From Octopus vulgaris (taxonomy: Eukaryota), in NCBI GenBank assembly GCA_951406725.2, contig OX597814.1:203484001-203548000 (forward strand): a stretch of DNA of 64,000 nt. Direction: 5' to 3'. The notes under the pieces were generated by a model. That model had not been told where the DNA came from and searched no databases. It worked only from the letters and a program-made list of their open reading frames with translations. The translations under genes were made by a program, and so were the position numbers. Below are positions 4,348 through 61,980 of this stretch, in pieces (the first letter of the stretch is position 1; each line of letters starts with the position of its first letter).

Positions 4348-4419
4348 GCCGTGATCGTCTAGTGGTTAGGACCCCACGTTGTGGCCGTGGTAACCCAGGT
4401 TCGAATCCTGGTCACGGCA
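4348..4419 (+). tRNA. tRNA-His, anticodon GTG
   Basis: 72-nt cloverleaf: acceptor GCCGTGA/TCACGGC plus discriminator A; anticodon stem CCACG/CGTGG with GTG at 4381-4383; T-arm CCAGG-TTCGAAT-CCTGG; intact A and B boxes; TATA-rich upstream flank. Confidence 0.97.
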
Positions 4420-15760: not shown

Positions 15761-16078
15761 ATTTTTAAGTTTATCTCTTACAGATTTTCTGTATAATTTA
15801 GAGCCAGTACTGAAGGTTATGATGTTTCATATATAAATATGTGTATGTAAACAATGTAAACAAAGTGGCTATTTAAGCAATGTATTCATGGATAGTTAAT
15901 AAGTTGGATGTGGTGCTGAAGAAGGAGAAATAACTCCTGAAATATGCATATAAATCCATTACTTGTTTTCCTGTGTTCACTTATATTGTTTACATAGATG
16001 TTTTCATGTAGGAAACGTTGCACCATTCAGTGGTGGCTCAAAATTCTATGGAAAATTTGTAGAGATAAACTTGGAAAT
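15761..16078. repeat. Fold-back element with ~100-bp imperfect arms and a hammerhead-like motif in the spacer
   Basis: aagtttatctc...tatgtaaacaatgtaa pairs with ttatattgtttacata...gagataaactt. Confidence 0.85.
15912..15957 (+). ncRNA. Type I hammerhead ribozyme motif with decayed stem I
   Basis: CTGAAGA (15916-15922), stem II AGGAG/CTCCT, GAA, palindromic stem III ATATGCATAT, then A. Confidence 0.6.
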
Positions 16079-23210: not shown

Positions 23211-23750
23211 TTACTCAACATTTAGGGATAGGAATAAACGTAACAGTACAGGGCTCAGTAAATTAATTTGGGATCTAAAAGACCACAATAAACAATTTAA
23301 TTTAGAATGGTTGATTCTCTCAATCTTGATACCTTATGATAAAGGCAAGGTATTAAACACGGTTATAGAACGTGCATACCGATGTAAGCATTGGCAAAAC
23401 ACACCTTTAGTTCATATAAGTAATCTCTATCATTATATATAATTTAAAAATTAATTTTCTTTTTATATTTAACATTCACTAAAAAAATATCCCTCCTCTT
23501 TCTATAGACTACTTCTGATGTTATATCATATAACGTTTTTTCAAACAATATTAATAGCATTCAGTATATCACTATACTTATACATCATTTTCTGTTAAAA
23601 TGTCTTATTGATGAGTTTCATTTCTTCACTTCTCTGAAGAGAAGATTACATTGTTTTAACCATTTATTCCTTTGGAATAATATCAGTGAAATCTTCGAAA
23701 CATGTGTCAGAAGTAAAAGTATTTGAATTATACCTACGTTAAACTCTATT
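23210..23750 (+). mobile_element. Penelope-like element 3' end (GIY-YIG C-terminal part and HHR-bearing terminus)
   Basis: HYSTFR...NSTGLSKLIWDLKD...LEWLIL is homologous to HTHSFR...QTTLAAHIWYLKR...KWKLL of the PLE at 24387-25590. Ends in (TA)n. Confidence 0.85.
23628..23714 (+). ncRNA. Type I hammerhead ribozyme with canonical core and GUC site
   Basis: Stem I ACTTCT/AGAAGT; CTGAAGA 23634-23640; stem II GAAGATT/AATCTTC with a branched extension; GAAA 23697-23700; stem III AC-ATGT-GT; predicted cleavage after C23708. Confidence 0.85.
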
Positions 23751-23885: not shown

Positions 23886-24329
23886 CATCATCATCGTTTA
23901 ACGTCCGTTCTCCATGCTAGCATGGGTTGGGCAGTTCGACCGGGGATCTGGGAAGCCAGAAGGCTGCATCAGGCTCTGGTCTTATCTGGCAATGTTTCTA
24001 CAGCTGGATGCCCTTCCTAACGCCAACCACTCCGTGAGTGTAGTGGGTGCTTTTTACGTGCTACCTGCACTGGTGCCAGGCGAGGCTGGCATCGGCCACG
24101 GTCGGATTGGTGCATTTTACGTGCCACCTGCACGGAAGCCAGTCGAGGCGGCACTGGCTTCGGCCACGATTCGGATGGTGCTTTTTACATGCCACCGACA
24201 CGGAAGCCAGTCAAGGCGGCGCTGGCATTGGCCACGATTCAGATAGTGCTTTTTACATATCTCCAGTCCAGGGGTCCTGGCATCTGCCGGGTGCCAGTCA
24301 TAGGATTGGTTCAATTTTGATTCCGATTT

Positions 24330-28690: not shown

Positions 28691-29011
28691 TGAGAATCTC
28701 CTTATTTACCTATAACTCTATCCCCCCTTTTTTTATATATATATATTTTTTTTATATATATATTTTTTATATATATTTTTTATTTTTTATATTTTTTTAT
28801 TTTTTTTTTTATTTTTTTTATTTTTTTATTTTTTTTTATTTTATTATTTTATTTTTTTATTTATCTATTCTTTCATCTAACTTACCACTGACTCCTTGAC
28901 CACTCCCCCAAGTATGATATTTTGCGCTATGCCTACCCCCAAAAAAGTCCCCCACCACCACTCCTTTAAACCTGCCTAAATGTATAAATGCTAATACAAT
29001 TCTTGTTAAAT

Positions 29012-29062
29012 AGCTTCCTGAAGATTTCTCTTGAATGAAACAGTACTAGTCCTGTAGAAGCT
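29012..29062 (+). ncRNA. Type I hammerhead ribozyme with GUA site
   Basis: Stem I AGCTTC/GAAGCT; CTGAAGA 29018-29024; stem II TTC/GAA with a T.T at its base; GAAA 29037-29040; stem III ACAG/CTGT enclosing an ACTAGT palindrome; predicted cleavage after A29056. Confidence 0.8.
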
Positions 29063-29076
29063 CCTTCTATATAATA

Positions 29077-30977: not shown

Positions 30978-31350
30978 AAGCACTATCCGAATTGTGGCCG
31001 ATGCCAGCGCCGCCTCGACTGGCTTCCGTGTCGGTGGCACGTAAAAAGCACCATCCGAATCGTGACCGAAGCCAGTGCCGCCTCGACTGGCTTCTGTGCC
31101 GGTGGCACGTAAAATGCACCAATCCGACCGTGGCTGATGCCAGCCTCGCCTGGCACCAGTGCAGGTGGCACGTAAAAAGCACCCACTACACTCACGGAGT
31201 GGTTGGCGTTAGGAAGGGCATCCAGCTGTAGAAACATTGCCAGATAAGACCGGAGCCTGATGCAGCCTTCTGGCTTCCCAGATCCCCGGTCGAATCGTTC
31301 AACCCATGCTAGCATGGAGAACGGACGTTAAACGATGATGACGATGATGA
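30978..31350 (+). mobile_element. Family C RTE-related element with (GAT)n tail
   Basis: Reverse complement of 23884-24258. Confidence 0.85.
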
Positions 31351-37822: not shown

Positions 37823-40259
37823 ATTAATTCCTGATGAATTATATGTTGTTAATTAAAGACAGTGTATATATGCATAAGTGTATATTTATGTATGTATAGA
37901 TATCTGTACTAAGTTTTAAGCAGAGACTTGAAGTTTTGTAGAAAATATTTACAATAGATGCCTTGCAGTGGAACTGAACCGGAAGCCATATGATTGCATA
38001 GTGAAATACTTAACAATGCAACCCAACAATGCTTGCTCCTGTACATACATAATACATACATACATACATACATACATACATACATACAGACATACATACA
38101 TAAAGAGAGAGAGAGAGAGAGAAAAGAAAGAGTGATGGAGATAGAGTGTGTATGTGTGCAAGTGCACACGTGTGTGTGTATATGTTTTAAACTACAAACC
38201 CCTATAAAATGATGCATGTTTCTTGGAGACATGATTATATGGGAAGGTTAGCCACACTGGGGTCGATGTAATCGACAAGTCCTCTCCCCCACAATTTCAG
38301 GCCTTGTGCCTTTAGTAGAAAGGATTATATCTTTACTCAGAGTTCACTTCAAGCAGGGATTTTACACTTCCTTACCATCAACCTATGATAAACACCATTA
38401 TATGCATCCTCACTATATGAATATATATGTATAACTCTGCTTTTAGAACACCGTGTATGTCTACGTTAACCCTTTAATAACAACCCATCCAAGACTGCCC
38501 TGGTTTTTATGAAATGAAAGTGTTGTTTTAACATGATCTAAATAAAAATCTTCTATCAAAATTCTATGTTAATTTATGTTCCAAACATCAGTTTTGCAAC
38601 TACAAGTTTTCTTTACTTCATTATGTTCAAAATTAATTGAAACAAAGGTAGTGTATTTTAAGAGAAAATTGGAACAGTTAATCAACTACACAAATTTTCT
38701 TCATTAAACAACTTTAATTCATACCAAGCCATTAACCAAATTAACCATAAACAGATATTTTTGTCGATGTGATTGGCACTACCCACTATCTTCCCCAGAT
38801 TAGGGAGGAATCACATCCTTCAAGAAGACCAAGAACTATGGCAGAAAATAAATATTCTAGAACAATGAAAGTAATATGAAATATTGGGTGGCAAGCTGGC
38901 CGAATCATTAGCATGCAGGGCAAAATGCTTAGTCGCATTTTGGCTGCCTGTGTTCTGAGTTCAAATTCTGATTAGGTCGACTTTGCCTTTCATCCTTCTG
39001 GGGTTGATGTAATCAACTTACCACTTCCACTCCACGCCTGAACTTGCTAGCCTTGTGGCAAAAGATTCAAAACTTGTGCGAAATATTAGGATGGCATGGT
39101 TGATAAGATGCTTGCCAAACATACTCAAATGACACTGCATACTGTTTCCTGTTTTATCAGTTGGACTACATTGCACTTTTAAAGAATTTTATTTACCATA
39201 ATTTTATCTAAGCTTGTGACAAAATTCATTACTTTGTCACAAGTTCAGATGAGCTGGAAAGCATTATGATGAACACATCATCATCATCAACATCATTTAA
39301 CGTCCATTTTCCTGGTTGGCATAGGTTTGACAGGAGCTAGCAAATTGGAAGTTGTACCATGCCCCAATTGTCTGATTTGACATGGTTTCTACAGCTGAAT
39401 GTCCTTCCTAACACCAACTATTTTACAGAGTGTACTATGTGCTTCTTATGCGGAACAGGCATGGGAACTTTTTATGCAGTACCAACACAAGTGCTTTTTA
39501 CATGGCACCAGCATGGGTGCATTTTACCTGGCACTATTGTGGGTGTTTTTTATGTGAAACCTGTGGGGTCACTAAATATCTTGCAAGACAAGGACCTCTC
39601 ACCTGAGAGAGAGAGTGAAACTGAGAGAAGTGGCCATGTGTCAGGTGAAAAGTTGAAGTTTGATAGAAGGACAGGGATATCTGTCTTACTACAGAGAAGA
39701 TACTTGGCTACTCTAGCAGGACGAGGAAGGTGTGTGTGAGACTCAGAGATAATTAAAATTACTTATGCATACTCATACAGAGTGCAGTAGAAAAACCTCC
39801 CATATTTTACACAGTCAAAGGTGTGGCATTAGTAAAATTAGATAAATGGGAAAAGTATTTTCATATAACTTATTTTATTGCTCTTTTTTCAGCGACCATT
39901 ATGGTTTAAACTGGTACATACCACACCAAGTTTTTGTTATTAAAACATTTGTCAACCAGTACATAAAAAGGTCTTATAAAACTAATATTACTGACAGCGA
40001 TAGTATAATGCTGAAAAGAATGCTTCTTTACTGTACCTACTTTTGTTGTTGTTATTTTGTGCTTAACCTGGAGAGGAAAGTGCAGTGTATTGCCCGATAT
40101 GTGATTAAGAACTTTGCTTCCCAACCACATAGTTTCAGAAAGTCTCAGGTTCAGTCCCTTTGTGTGGCACCTTGTGCAAATGTCTTTTATGAAAGCCCTG
40201 GGCTGACCAAAGCTTTGTGAATGGATTTGGTAGATGGGGTCTGAAAGAAGCCAGTCATA

Positions 40260-40347
<88 letters not shown>

Positions 40348-41016
40348 TGGTGGTTGTAAATAAGTTCCACTGTCATTCATTTCCAATATTCTACATAAAC
40401 ATGTTTGGGTATGAGAAAATATTTCCTTGATTGAACACAAGTGAGGGTTGACAGCAGGAAGGACATCAGTCTGTAGAAAATCTACTTTGAGAAACTCTGA
40501 CACATGCAACCATGGAAAAGTGGACGGTAATGCAATGATGATGACTGATGTATGCATTCATTCTCACCACACTCTTGTACACTTGAACATGAAGATGGAA
40601 TTCTTGCTATTGGGTTTTGTAGCAGAGAAAGGCTTCTCCCAATAGACAATGTGGGTAAACAGTACACTGCACCATAAGTAAACTTACTAGAACTTTCAGT
40701 GTAATTGCTGCACCTTGAGTTGTAGCTACCATTCAGTCCTTTGGGAGCTAAAAGATGCTGCCAACCATCATCTCTTTTGAAGCAAGATAATATTTTCTCT
40801 TGGCCAGGCATGTTTTTCACGAACAGTATTGCTTGTATGACAGTGATGTTCATTTAGAGCCATCATGTGATATCAAGACAAGGGTACACTCAAATACACA
40901 TACACATATACATATATCCATCATCATCATCATACCTAAGCATCCATAAGTCAGAAAAAATAGGCAATTGCATATTTGTTAATAAAGTAGGTATATTAAA
41001 GTACACAGTATTGTAG

Positions 41017-41531
41017 ATCTATTTCAGCCAATCTTACCAATTGGTTGCCCACCAGGTATTAGATAACCAAATACTAATAATAATAACCAAGTATTAGATA
41101 GCAGGATAGTTATCTAAATGCAACGTGCTCATCAGAGATGGCAGGTATGGAAAAAAAAACAAAAAAACATGGTGACTGCTCTCAGTTATTGGAGGTAAGA
41201 AAATGTCACACTTGGTTTGTGGGTGCTGGATATATTTTCACCCAGACTCTCACTGCTTTACAACTAACTCAAGAATTTTGGAGTCAAGAGACATAATTCT
41301 TGATAAATCTCTTGCATAACTGCCTCCTGCAACTTTGTTTTGTCTTTTTCCACAATACTCACAAATTGAACATGACACTTTCTCACCTCCAATAACTAGA
41401 AACAGTCACCATGCTTTTTCTATACCTGCTATCTCTGAAGAGCATATGTATTTAGATAATCACCAGGTTATCTAATATCCAGTTATTTTATACCTGATGC
41501 AAAAGTGATTGGTAAGATCAGCTGAAATGGA
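41017..41531. repeat. Fold-back element with ~180-210-bp arms, each carrying a decayed hammerhead
   Basis: gagatggcaggtatggaaaaa/tttttctatacctgctatctc, catggtgactg/cagtcaccatg, agttattggaggt/acctccaataact and atcttaccaat/attggtaagat. Confidence 0.9.
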
Positions 41532-41632
41532 TGTCATACTTTATGCCTTAATTAACATATGCCATGATGGATCGTTAACTCCTACACACATTTTTTTCTC
41601 TCCTTGTTTCTCTCCTTATTTTTTTCTGTGTA

Positions 41633-41670
41633 TCTTTCTATCGAAGAGCGTGGGCTCAAAACGTAAAAGA
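41633..41670 (+). ncRNA. Degenerate minimal hammerhead motif with an extra A
   Basis: TCTTT-CTATCGA-A-GAGC(GTGG)GCTC-AAA-ACGT-A-AAAGA. Confidence 0.5.
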
Positions 41671-42165
41671 CTTTTTCTATTCCTGAGCGCTATACTAATA
41701 CATTTGTTTGTTTGTACTCCACCTGCCTTCGTCTTTTGTTTATTTTCGTAAACTTTCCCTTTATATACATGACATGTTTGGCTTCTTTCAGTTTCTGTCT
41801 TAAAGTCACTCACAAAGCTTTGGTTGGCATGGGTCTATTGTAGAAGCCTCTTGCCCGAGGTACCACACAGTGAGACTGAATACAAAACCATGTGGTTGGT
41901 AAGCAAGTTTCATAACCACATGCCACTCCTGTGCCTATTGATGAGATTGCAAATGGTAATGAAAAGGCTCTAACAAACTGTTTGATTGAGTAATTGAAGG
42001 ACTAATCAAGCAATCAATTGGTTAATTGGTTAATTAGTTTGCTATTTGATTAATAATAATAAAGAAAAAAATAAAATAGGACCAGTGGGAATATTTCTTA
42101 TTAGTAAACTGACTCTACTCAGATTCATCAGTTATAATATTGGACTACACTATGCTAGTACAGCT

Positions 42166-42684: not shown

Positions 42685-43548
42685 GAGATAGTATCAAAAA
42701 ATTCCTGGACTAGTTATGTTTAAAAATAACTTATTTACCTAAGTTGTAACATCATCTCCTTCAAAATAGTCACCTTGCACAGCAATATACTGGTCCTAGT
42801 ATTCCTGCCACTTTTTGAATCCAGCCTGGAAATCATTTTCTGTGAGTCTTTTCTGCTTTGCTCTTCATCTTGACGACAGTGTTAAAACAGTGACCTTTGA
42901 ACTGAATTTTCATCTTTGGGAAGAGATGGAAGGCCTCTGGTGCTAAATCAGGCGAATAGGATGGGTGCAGAAGTGATATGTTGCTTTTGGCAAGAAACTC
43001 ATGAGTGAGAAGGGCTTGGTGACAGGTTGCATTATCGTGAAGAATCCAATTCCTGTATGGACCCATACAACAGACCACCAACATCAGCAATGTCGTTGAT
43101 TGTCCTATGATGATTCTCATGCATAAGCTGATGAATTTTCTCCACATTCCCAGGGGTGACGCTCATGGCAGGTCTTCCAGATTGCTCATCATCTTCCAAG
43201 GACATTCTTCTGCTTTTGAAGTGCTTGTGCCACTTGAAACATTGTGTATAACCCATTGCCTCATCACTGTAAGCTTGCCAAAGTATGCTCAATGTCTCTG
43301 TAACAGGCTTCCCAAGTTTAGTGCATAATTCCACCTTGGCTCTCTGTTTCAACTTCCTGTCATGACAAAAATCACATACTACAGCATACATGTGATCACA
43401 AAAACACAAATTCCACAACTTGCAAAATAAACACAGTAATATCACTTGGCACATTGCCTCATGAAGATCACTGCTAGCTCTCACTGTGCATACAACCATG
43501 TGCAGCTATCTGTTGGTGCATTACAGAACTAACCCAGGAACTTTTTGC
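42685..43548 (-). mobile_element. Internally deleted mariner with both TIR remnants
   Basis: SLEDDEQSGRP, LHDNATCH and HPSYSPDLAP..FHLF motifs; caaaaaattcctggactagtt is inverted relative to aactaacccaggaactttttg. Confidence 0.9.
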
Positions 43549-44406
43549 TTATTTATTTTTCAATTTACCTAATAAAAATCTTGTTAAGAAATATTTTGTT
43601 TCTCGAAACAACCTTCTTGTTTGCAAGAAGTAAATTAACATTATCATATATTTGTACTGATAAAAACAAATGAGAAAACTACTTCGTGTTGTTGAAGCCA
43701 AATTTCCCTCCGATAACATCTTATCACCTTAGAAAAGGATATATAGGATAATGTGGTTCTGGATTACCTGCATACTTATTCCTGTTAACCCTTAACACAG
43801 CACTTTCTCTTTCCCCTAACACTGTCACGGCTATTCTCTCCACTAATACCTTCTGCTAACAATAAACTTTTTCTTCCTATGGTACTTCTCAACATCTCAC
43901 ACCCAGTATTGCTAGTCTCTTTAGTCTTATAAGATACAAACTGACCTCACTAGAGTGTACCAGATGCCATGATATAAGCACAGAGTGCACTCTGTAAATT
44001 GGTTGTCTTTAAAAAGGGGATCCAGCAGTAGAAACCATGCAAGACTGAGACATTGGAATAAAATGATGTTCCACTGACTTGTTAGATCCTGTCAAACCAT
44101 CCAACCTATATCAGCATGGAAATCATACATAAAATAATGATGGTGATGGTGATGGTGGTGGTGGCAGCTGCAGTGGTAGTGATGTGATGGTGATGATGAT
44201 GGTGTTGGTAGTTGTAGTGTGATGCTGGTGGTGAAATCACTGATTATATGTTTTCTCAATCCCACTTAAATAATTTAAAAAATACACACATTACACATAC
44301 ATTTCCCTCGACTACATTCCACACAGACAACATTGATCAACTTGAGGTTATAGAAAACAACACTTGCCTGAAGTACCACACACTAGAATCAAACCCAGAA
44401 CTATGA

Positions 44407-44571
44407 GGCGTAGGAGTGGCTGTGTGGTAAGTAGCTTGCTTCCCAACCACATGGTTCCGGGTTCAGTCCCACTGTGTGGCACTTTGGGCAAGTGTCTTCT
44501 ACTATAGCCTTGGGCCAACCAGAGCCTTGTGAGTGGATTTGGTAGACAGAAACTGAAAGAAGCCTGTCGTA

Positions 44572-44616
<45 letters not shown>

Positions 44617-44835
44617 ATGTGTGTGTATATGTTTGTGTGTCTGTGTTTGTCCCCCTGACATCACTTGAGAACTGATGCTGGTGTGTTTACATCCCCAACT
44701 TAGCGGTTCAGCAAAAGAGATGGATAGAATAAGTACTGGGCTTACAAAGAATAAGTCCTGGGGTCGATTTGCTCGACTAAAAGGCAGTGCTCCAGCATGG
44801 CCACAGTCAAATGACTGAAACAAGTAAAAGAGTAA
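44407..44835 (+). mobile_element. SINE family A
   Basis: Aligns end to end with 35165-35575. Confidence 0.9.
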
Positions 44836-50849: not shown

Positions 50850-52315
50850 CGGCATCTAGACCTTTTGTAGAAGATTAGCATCAGAAGGTTCCTTGACTGC
50901 TTTTGTGTTGTTGGCATAGCTAGTAAATGTGGTTGTCTGTATAACTGATGGCATGTCTGAAAGAGCCACCATAAAGAGCAGCAGCCCCAAGACAATTCCC
51001 TGAAGCACTCTACTTGCTATTACTGTCTCCTTGGAGGGGGATCCATTAACTGCATTGCCTAGCTTCTGTCTTTTAAGAAGACATATAACCACCCTCCCAG
51101 TTTTCCGGCTATGCCAAGTCTTCATAGCTTGTGATATATCATCCCATGATCATCCTTATCAAATGCCTTTGCAAAATTAAGATATATCACACCCACGCTT
51201 GAGTGATTCACTAGTTGTTTCAACACCCAGACATAATGTTGCGATAGGTGTGTAAGACAGCTTCTTCCTGAGCAGAAGCCATGCTGGGTGTCAGGTAGCA
51301 AGTCATAATCTTCCAGAAGCGTGATCAGTTTCCTCTTGACAATACATTCCATGAGTTTGCTGACATGGGAGCTTAGGAAGATGGGCCTATAATTTTTAGC
51401 ATCCATTCTGCTACCTCCTCTATGGATAGGATGTATTATGCCTTCCTTTAACATAAGTTTCAAGAAAGCTTTGGAAGAGGATCTGTGGTTCTTGCTAGAG
51501 CCCCCTTTGCCTTTCTTCAGGAGGATTACTGGGAATCCATTATGGCCTGTGGTTGAGTCTAAGCACATTTCATCAATGGCTGATACTACATCAGTTTCCC
51601 CTATTTTGATGTTATCAAAAATTGCCATCTTTTTGTGTAGAGCTATGGTATGAAAGAACTCATCTGGCATAGCTACTTGCAAGTGCCCCAATGGAATTGT
51701 GAAAACACTTTTGTATGGCAAATTCAATATTTCACTTATCCTCTGAGGGTTTGCAACAGGTGAGCCATTTTCTTCGAACAGTGGCCCTATCTTGTACAGT
51801 ACTAAAGAAGACTCTTTTGCAAATCTATAGAAGGTTTTAGGGCTTGTTTTTACACTTTTTACAGCCCTGGCTTCCTTCTCTGTCCTTTCCTTCTCATGGG
51901 AATGTTTGAATCCTTTCAATCTCAAACAACCTCTGAAATAGGATTCTTTGCTATCCTTTAGTGGCCCACTTACTTTGAGATCTTTGTTCCTCATCTCATT
52001 ACAATCTTCCTATCCCTGGTTATTATGGTTTTTTTGTCAGTTTGTCATTCTCTCTGGAGCAAACTTACTGCATATGCCATACACAATGTTCATAAAGTTC
52101 TGTAGCTGTATGTCAATATTTTGTGTAGAGAAACCTGGAGACCAGTTTTGTTCCATGACTGCTTTCTGAATACCCTTCCAATCAGCTTTGTGAAAGTTTA
52201 GGCTGGAAAGAAGTTGGATGCTTCTAGTAGCCTGCATATCTGCAGTTCTCTGGGACCATATATTGTTTGTTCTATTAAGTTATGGTCCAAGAGAATCATT
52301 GGTATCACTTTAACA
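50850..52315 (-). mobile_element. Decayed CR1-group LINE ORF2 (RT)
   Basis: KNYRPIFLSSHVSKLME, LPDTQHGFCSGRSCLTHL, VIYLNFAKAFDK, LQGIVLGLLLF and SYANNTK (FADDTK). Confidence 0.92.
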
Positions 52316-56412: not shown

Positions 56413-57355
56413 TTGGGTCATCCCATAAATAATGCAGTTTCTTATACTTCTTTTATTTTTTTAAATTAAGATAAACAAATTGTTTTTAAATCTAAAGTAT
56501 ACTCTCCAGCTTCTATGATGCTCTTCCATCTATCTGGTAGACTTGCAAGGCCCTTCTTCCAAAATTCACTTGTCCATGACAAAAAATACTCCTCCAGTAC
56601 TGTTCTGAACTCTTCTATAGAATTCATATTTTTTTCCATCCAAATGATTTTGAAGACTGCAAAATAAATGATAATCAGATGGAGCAATATCAGGTGAATA
56701 TGGTGGCTGGAGCATCATTTCCCATTCGAACTGCTCCAACTTTTGGAATGTCATCCTCGCTGTATGTGGCTGAGCATTATCCTGATGGAAGAACACCTTT
56801 TGCCTTGAGACCAAAGATGGTCATTTTTCTTCTAGCACTGACTTAATCCGCTCAAGCTGCTGACAGTAGATCTCCTTTGTTATCGTTTGGTTTGGGCTTA
56901 AAAGTTCAAAGTAGACTAAACCTTTCATATCCCACCAAATAGATAATAACACCTTATGTGGGTGAAAGCCTTCTTTAACCTGGGGAGCTGGTGTTTCTCC
57001 TTTCCCTATCCCCTGTCTTTGGTACTTGACATTTTTATAGAGAATCCATTTCTCATCACCAGTCACTATTTGGTCCAAAAAAAGGTTCATTCGTGAGATG
57101 TGACAGCAAAGAAGAGCACACATTCACTTGCTGCAAATGATTAGACTCAGAAAGTTTGTGAGGAATACATTTACTCAATTTGCTGACTTTTCTGTTGGCA
57201 CACAGGTACTGATGAATGGTTGAATGACCAAATCCAAGCTTTGCTGCTAGTTCCTCAACAGTTACCGTGGGATTTTGTTCCACCAGGGTTTGCAGGACAT
57301 TCTCATCAAGCTTCCAGGATGAGGCTCATCTTCTAGACTGTAGTTTCCCAAATTT
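56413..57355 (-). mobile_element. Mariner element, 5'-truncated
   Basis: IVTGDEKWILY, KVLLSIWWD, FHQDNAQPH and PPYSPDIAPSDYHLF; terminus TA|TTGGGTCATCCCATAAATAATG. Confidence 0.93.
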
Positions 57356-61602: not shown

Positions 61603-61980
61603 CATCATCATCATCATCGTTCAACGTCCGTTCTCCATGCTAGCATGTGTTGGACGGTTCAACCGGGGATCTGGGAAGCCAGAATGCTGCACCAGGCTCC
61701 GGTCTTATCTGGCAATGTTTCTACAGCTGGATGCCCTTCCTAACGCCAACCACTCCGTGAGTGTAGTGGGTGCTTTTACGTGCCACCTGCACTGGTGCCA
61801 GGCGAGGCTGGCATCGGCCACGGTCGGATTGGTGCATTTTACGTGCCACCTGCACGGAAGCCAGTCGAGGCGGCACTGGCTTCGGCCACAATTCGGATGG
61901 TGCTTTTTACGTGCCACCGACACGGAAGCCAGTCGAGGCGGCGCTGGCATCGGCCATGATTCGGATAGTGCTTTTTACGT
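61603..61980 (-). mobile_element. Family C RTE-related element
   Basis: Near-identical to 23884-24258. Confidence 0.85.

Follow-up and report, generated by a model that had tools for sequence, protein, structure and literature searches.

What kind of DNA carries two hammerhead ribozyme motifs back to back on opposite strands, and does such a pair do anything? The question is raised by positions 41017..41531 of the window (the whole stretch of 64,000 nucleotides analysed here), where a reading made from the letters alone, which I call the sequence-only reading, had seen a divergent pair of hammerheads with long stem II in one palindrome and had taken it for a possible self-inhibiting switch or a device for two-polarity processing. 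I conclude that the palindrome is made of two head-to-head copies of a dispersed repeat family with core-mutated hammerheads, and that it is very probably a dead Penelope-like insertion consisting of a longer and a shorter inverted copy, both 5'-truncated, with a tail at one side only. The longer copy would lie at approximately 41225-41556 on the forward strand, and the shorter inverted copy with its one-sided tail at 41224-40938 on the reverse strand.

The inverted arms themselves are real. In local alignment, 137 of 176 aligned letters are identical, with 39 mismatches (31 of them transitions) and 32 gap columns, and the score of 144 compares with a maximum of 43 among 500 shuffles. A 541-nt strand across both arms folds with z = -16.3, and none of 100 shuffles folded equally well. 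Each arm contains one type I hammerhead motif directed outward from the centre, the two cores lying 300 nt apart. On the forward strand, the right motif (41431..41518) reads ATCT at 41431-34, CTGAAGA at 41435-41, GCAT at 41442-45, ATGC at 41497-500, AAAA at 41501-04, GTGATTGG at 41505-12, TA at 41513-14 and AGAT at 41515-18. On the reverse strand, the left motif (41031..41139) reads ATCT at 41139-36, CTGATGA at 41135-29, GCAC at 41128-25, GTGG at 41052-49, GCAA at 41048-45, CCAATTGG at 41044-37, TA at 41036-35 and AGAT at 41034-31. All letters of the two arms quoted in the sequence-only reading were found in place.

To go beyond the single copy at the locus, I used contigs from 4 of 24 public sequencing runs (X1, X6, X8 and X15), placed on the locus at 80% likeness; their summed depth is a rough guide only and gives no copy number. 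The inverted pair is no assembly artefact, because two of these contigs cross parts of it: X8 record 30 covers left flank and left arm and reaches 41297, and X6 record 21 starts at 41297 and enters the right arm. Among the contig pieces listed, none spans both arms whole. I rejected a continuous palindrome through the centre, as 331 of 1000 shuffles were as self-complementary as the 132-nt spacer (41225..41356), which judging from these shuffles and from contig depth is likely a further 5' part of the longer, forward-strand right copy. Thus, of the single palindrome first described, the inverted arms stand, whereas the centre is not palindromic and the element is larger, beginning at 40938 and ending on the right likely near 41556.

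Where the element ends is clearer on the left than on the right. Alignment to the right arm together with family contigs delimits the left copy (40938..41224, reverse strand) as a short, inverted, 5'-truncated terminal (pLTR-like) region of the family, and contig pieces at 40938-41046, 40938-41041 and 40942-41046 set its outer limit, so that the family reaches 79 nt past the boundary first noted, while on the right side family pieces end at approximately 41532. The outermost part of the left copy is a candidate tail (40938..40990, reverse strand) with no clear counterpart at the right end. Here the summed depth in X1 is 1727-2145 against approximately 4550 at 40996-41051, a step partly confounded by divergence of the copy at the locus, and 28-32 contigs in X1 and X6 cover 40967-40971. 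The right copy (41357..41556, forward strand) is clear to 41532 and weaker from there to approximately 41556. Beyond 41532, it shows 15 of 22 ungapped matches to the left arm in one of nine registers, and this is the register predicted by two extra letters that the orthologous contigs carry behind 41534. All orthologue differences past 41532 (41533 G>C, GA behind 41534, and 41547 C>T) shift the sequence toward the left arm. A free local alignment of 41533-41600, which 197 of 2000 shuffles matched, counts against the extension, but from the sequence the right arm probably continues to approximately 41556. Depending on whether the right arm runs to 41565 or to 41556, approximately 30 or 53 nt of family sequence at the left end find no match on the right.

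The right end is blurred, and adjoins another repeat at 41561. This repeat (41561-41760, forward strand) is of very high copy, with a summed depth thousands of times that of a single contig, and contains a short hairpin whose two sides carry GAAGAG and AAAAC-GUA, like a minimal hammerhead in which the first core half is non-canonical; a consensus of loose-end contigs suggests that its family lacks CUGA too. No target-site duplication emerged beyond a chance-level direct repeat of 5-6 nt among the 672 end pairs tried. The best of these, TCATAC at 40930-35 and 41534-39, sits in flanks rich in CAT and ACATAC, and the two extra letters of the orthologues fall inside its right-hand copy; I rejected it as a target-site duplication.

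Would either hammerhead still cut? An intact type I core reads C3 U4 G5 A6 N7 G8 A9, G12 A13 A14 A15 and U16 H17, and core substitutions of the kind seen in each arm are treated as disqualifying where such a core is defined in PMC3088659; neither arm has an intact core. The left hammerhead retains a CUGAUGA core, a GUA site and an intact stem III (CCAAUUGG) and has an 80-nt stem II region, with GCAA replacing GAAA (A13>C) and G replacing C at position 11.1, which leaves a G-G mismatch at 10.1-11.1. The right hammerhead has a CUGAAGA core, a 59-nt stem II region and a GUA site, with AAAA replacing GAAA (G12>A) and the 5' side of stem III altered at three letters, so that the stem is broken. The two arms carry different lesions, just as the sequence-only reading had it. 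G12 is the proposed general base of the hammerhead (PMC6257768). The right-arm G12>A falls at an ancestral CpG, and 8 contigs of X1 have C>T at 41500 (among the 40 of 100 variants listed), which fits decay of that CpG.

Predicted folding points the same way. Both arms can in principle form a stem I of 4 bp, which is extendable and has a probability of 0.16-0.45 when the arms are isolated, and the closing pairs of stem II have a probability of at most 0.003 even then. When full strands are folded, stems I and II of both hammerheads have a pairing probability of 0.0 on both strands. The earlier expectation that read-through RNA from either strand would bury a hammerhead in its own antisense is thus upheld in predicted folding, and the antisense arm is always transcribed first. 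From their sequence, then, neither arm would be expected to cut.

Neither arm matched Rfam at gathering or E-value thresholds. A hammerhead descriptor allowing one core mismatch gave 8 matches in the window against 1-6 in each of 10 shuffles, and one arm alone would therefore be unconvincing; the motifs are credible because the arms are duplicated and a repeat family exists, not from the motifs alone.

The window at large is animal DNA rich in AT and in microsatellites, with scattered repeats of octopus-like appearance, a single tRNA gene (4348-4419, forward strand, Rfam 62 bits, anticodon loop GTG) and weak reverse-transcriptase and mariner-type remnants. The strict hammerhead descriptor matched three times in it and not at all in 10 shuffles. 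At 23625-23720 (forward strand, core 23634) there is a type I motif with an intact core (CUGAAGA and GAAA), a stem II region of 56 nt and a GUC site. A (TA)n run comes next; the motif is unrelated in sequence to the family of the inverted pair and has no inverted partner. A hammerhead-like motif with an intact core lies at 15905-15965 (forward strand, core 15916), with a 5-bp stem II and a fold z of -3.8, its predicted fold differing from the full hammerhead form, and another at 29008-29066 (forward strand, core 29018), with a weak stem II and a 4-bp stem III, adjoins a (TA)n run. Four other hammerhead-like motifs of the window lack an inverted partner in the 700 nt upstream of them (scores of 21-30 against 89 at 41017-41531), and their sequences are unrelated to the family. 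Among other repeats, a SINE-like dispersed repeat is present in three copies (40100-40340, 41802-41936, inverted, and 44406-44650), two of which end in microsatellites; an inverted pair of 60 nt, 75% complementary and 299 nt apart, lies just left of the hammerhead pair (40397-40456 and 40756-40815); and a GC-rich unit of 68 nt occurs in approximately three tandem copies each at 24046-24256, 30978-31183 and 61769-61980. Mariner-type remnants lie on the reverse strand at 43035-43505 (HTH_48, E 7e-5) and 56824-57325 (Transposase_1, E 6e-22), and a weak RVT_1 match (E 1e-4) sits at the end of a 294-codon frame at 51122-52006, also on the reverse strand.

The two lesioned arms together had led the sequence-only reading to an ancestor with GAAA, and other copies bear this out. 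The arms are members of a dispersed family with copies in the tens: in each run the outer arms are matched by tens of contigs, and a variant at 41013 was found in 54 contigs of X1 and 62 of X6. At place 41047, the change G>T, which restores GAAA in the left arm, is carried by all 19 covering contigs of X1 (depth 1226.5 of 1226.5), by 20 contigs of X6 (1317.8 of 1369.8), by 13 of X8 (98.6 of 102.1) and by 3 of X15 (22.5 of 22.5). One further family copy reads GAAA directly ahead of CCAATTGG (among the 12 of 22 records listed), both CUGAUGA and CUGAAGA are present among family copies (place 41131), and the family has G10.1-C11.1. The family majority thus has the intact core letter at 41047; place 41501 lies outside the 40 of 100 variants listed. 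Sequence and family contigs together support for both arms a type I hammerhead ancestor that had GAAA, a GUA site and a stem III complementary to itself, the last two likewise features of the ancestor first proposed.

Family cover along the locus is uneven. Relative to single-contig depth, the summed depth in X1 is approximately 85 at 40996-41051, 22 at 41136-41191, 9 at 41192-41219, 1-3 across the spacer, 4-5 at 41360-41415, 24 at 41416-41443 and 40 at 41500-41527. Cover thus peaks over the 3' half of the hammerhead and the sequence beyond and drops toward the centre, the spacer (41225-41356) having approximately 1-4 times single-contig depth and few family copies at 80% likeness; the unevenness is partly due to divergence of the locus and to its expanded stem II, a dip at 41080-41107 coinciding with the expanded stem II of the left arm. 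In some other contigs, too, left-arm and right-arm sequence are joined, at 40962>41414, 41046>41425 and 41067>41498 (among the 15 of 37 joints listed) and at 41027>41415 and 41044>41501 (among the 12 of 22 records listed). Each joint is one contig per run at 80% likeness with a short side (20-32 letters where given), and I treat them as hints, but their differing places are as variable truncation predicts. Run X15, guessed to be RNA and with contigs that show neither strand nor level, yielded few family pieces (e.g. 41468-41532) and left the central bins uncovered.

Within the 64-kb window, the arm sequence has only these two inverted copies and no third. I found no description of the family in the papers searched, the supplement of PMC8557442 included, and the family may already be catalogued. 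In metagenome contigs, an 18-nt motif of GAAA, stem III and stem I occurred at 120 loci. None of them has CUGANGA in the 130 nt upstream, and the element's best blast match among them is 24 nt long; I attribute these occurrences to chance.

The long stem II proved a feature of the family and not of the locus alone. From CUGANGA to GAAA, two other copies measure 37 and 43 nt and form a single hairpin (among the 12 of 22 records listed), against the 59 and 80 nt of the right and left arm. Each arm contains two copies of the same 11-nt unit, taken from the 3' strand of the stem II hairpin, and from the sequence it appears that a helix II already long in the family was lengthened further at the locus by slippage. 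In a contig from organism C (X6, a single case), 20 nt are missing from the left stem II region at 41072 (41072..41091), and X8 record 30 has only 1 gap; the difference would reflect recent slippage or polymorphism. The long helix II is the one mild novelty of the family.

How old is the insertion? Contigs from the orthologous locus in two related species, organisms C and D, differ from the window in 2-5 letters per 166-379 nt (approximately 1-2%), whereas the two arms differ from each other in 22% of aligned letters, so that the insertion is much older than those species splits. At place 41047, the depth that does not carry the restoring letter equals that of the orthologous contigs (52 for X6 record 18 and 3.44 for X8 record 30), and organisms C and D therefore share the left lesion. 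For the right arm, X6 record 23 of organism C has three differences, two of them listed at 41533 and 41547, which leaves at most one unlisted and makes at least three of the four right-arm lesions common to organism C.

What, then, produced such an arrangement? In published descriptions, Penelope-like elements insert with their 5' part truncated, frequently have at the 5' end an inverted copy that is itself 5'-truncated, and bear a tail of 30-40 bp at one end (PMC8557442); head-to-head inverted pLTRs with a 31-bp tail have been attributed to self-priming on an antisense template (PMC3846280). The hammerheads in Penelope terminal repeats are of type I, have a palindromic stem III and act as dimers (PMC4209133; review PMC6765202), and in Schistosoma mansoni hammerhead pairs lie on opposite strands 100-700 bp apart (PMC4209133). 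The locus agrees with both descriptions, with a type I hammerhead and palindromic stem III in the terminal repeat and 5'-truncated copies beside an adjoining inverted 5'-truncated one. Like the endonuclease-bearing insertions of PMC8557442 (Fig. 2 legend) and PMC3846280, it has unequal head-to-head inverted copies whose 3' ends face outward, family sequence that seems to extend further at one end alone, inner breakpoints that vary and a hammerhead near the 3' end; unlike them, it has no ORF and no clear target-site duplication, and its candidate tail is 30-53 nt against the 30-40 printed there. With the Penelope hammerheads described in PMC4209133 it shares type I topology, a short stem I by the core, G10.1-C11.1 (in the family), a palindromic stem III, a longer-than-usual helix II and an opposite-strand pair. 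It differs in the length of helix II (6-8 bp there, 37 and 43 nt in two other copies of the family and 59 and 80 nt in the arms) and in stem III, which is absent or 1-2 bp there and a full 10-nt palindrome in the family at the locus.

The likely course of events would begin with a Penelope-like element whose terminal repeat contained the hammerhead. Reverse transcription from the 3' end would have halted early, giving a 5'-truncated terminal copy, and the inverted copy would have arisen as the element inserted, through self-priming or template switching; the arms, identical at that moment, would then have decayed neutrally. Read-through RNA would form a long imperfect duplex, as a by-product of insertion and not as a selected switch.

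An autonomous Penelope-like element contains an ORF with a telomerase-like reverse transcriptase and a GIY-YIG endonuclease. A stump of 600 nt is not expected to hold it, and no reverse transcriptase or GIY-YIG sequence tied to the family was found at the locus, nor any Penelope-type domain near the element in the 27 of 223 stop-to-stop frames of the window that were scanned. An 82-residue frame across the spacer and right arm (41227-41472, with one stop), whose faint likeness had suggested an endonuclease C-terminus, has no relatives among 1.84 billion proteins and no Pfam family, and I rejected it. The name Penelope-like is therefore drawn from architecture and ribozyme type, because no Penelope protein was found.

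Two other kinds of mobile DNA deserve consideration. A non-autonomous fold-back DNA transposon (MITE-like, as defined in PMC8969392), whose long terminal inverted repeats had captured a hammerhead and which moved as a whole palindrome, would account for inverted arms of approximately 200 nt flanking a spacer, for the 6-nt TCATAC repeat, and for the left-to-right-arm joints. However, such copies should be uniform in length, have both inverted ends and share one interior, and this is not what was found: the ends are unequal, family cover varies along the element and is almost lost in the spacer, the family reaches further at one end, the joints fall at differing places, and the 6-nt repeat is only the best of 672 end pairs, with two letters added within it in the orthologues. 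I regard this origin as distinctly improbable. It is just as hard to credit that the family consists of non-LTR retrozymes, copied via circular RNA, with the locus an aberrant inverted dimer or two independent back-to-back insertions. With its type I hammerhead and a stem III of 4 bp, the short non-coding repeat does resemble the metazoan retrozymes of PMC7229834 and bioRxiv 2026.07.22.740005, and the latter argues that retrozymes derive from Penelope terminal repeats. Yet retrozymes are defined by head-to-tail tandem hammerhead units of 150-450 bp (PMC7229834), and there is no such array at the locus or in the window, where the family instead appears as an inverted pair, with dispersed truncated copies elsewhere. 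Two independent landings 132 nt apart are unlikely, because the family has tens of copies and no third copy in the window, and the same doubled 11-nt stem II unit in both arms suggests one template.

The functional proposal is a different matter, since it concerns what the locus does. If the locus were a switch or two-polarity processor, antisense would shut the hammerhead in read-through RNA, and one ribozyme or both would be released in RNAs that begin in the spacer. Both motifs are indeed shut in full-strand folding, isolated arms can form stem I, the locus is present in organisms C and D, and a possibly bidirectional promoter has been proposed in Penelope terminal repeats (PMC3846280); my promoter scan of the locus found none, with a bacterial consensus that does not apply to animal DNA. 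A switch needs an active state, however, and each arm has a disqualifying core substitution and a damaged stem adjoining the core. The closing pairs of stem II scarcely form even in isolated arms, the open state, RNAs from the spacer included, would still carry a mutated core, and the orthologues retain the left lesion in both cases and at least three of the four right lesions in one. Given these lesions, and a layout known as a by-product of Penelope insertion, the switch and the two-polarity processing are unsupported, and I consider either highly improbable.

With a Penelope-like insertion as the preferred reading, the locus matters little as it stands, being a single decayed copy whose insertion architecture is known. 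It nevertheless offers a clean case in which two lesioned arms predicted an ancestral ribozyme core that other copies then confirmed. How inverted terminal copies form is the subject of existing proposals: PMC3846280 proposes self-priming, and for one Penelope-like element PMC11167929 finds in vitro that the tail lies between two reverse-transcription start sites, that the hammerhead is protein-assisted and that its cutting is not needed for insertion. Against this background, the family may be worth a look, since its helix II exceeds the 6-8 bp of Penelope hammerheads (PMC4209133) several-fold. An unlikely extension is that the family carries an active hammerhead variant with a single helix II hairpin of approximately 18-19 bp and a 10-nt palindromic stem III, in which the hairpin is the site where reverse transcription folds back, and the contig joined at 41067>41498 does connect both arms inside stem II. 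If this were true, the ribozyme's own stem would explain the head-to-head insertions of Penelope elements.
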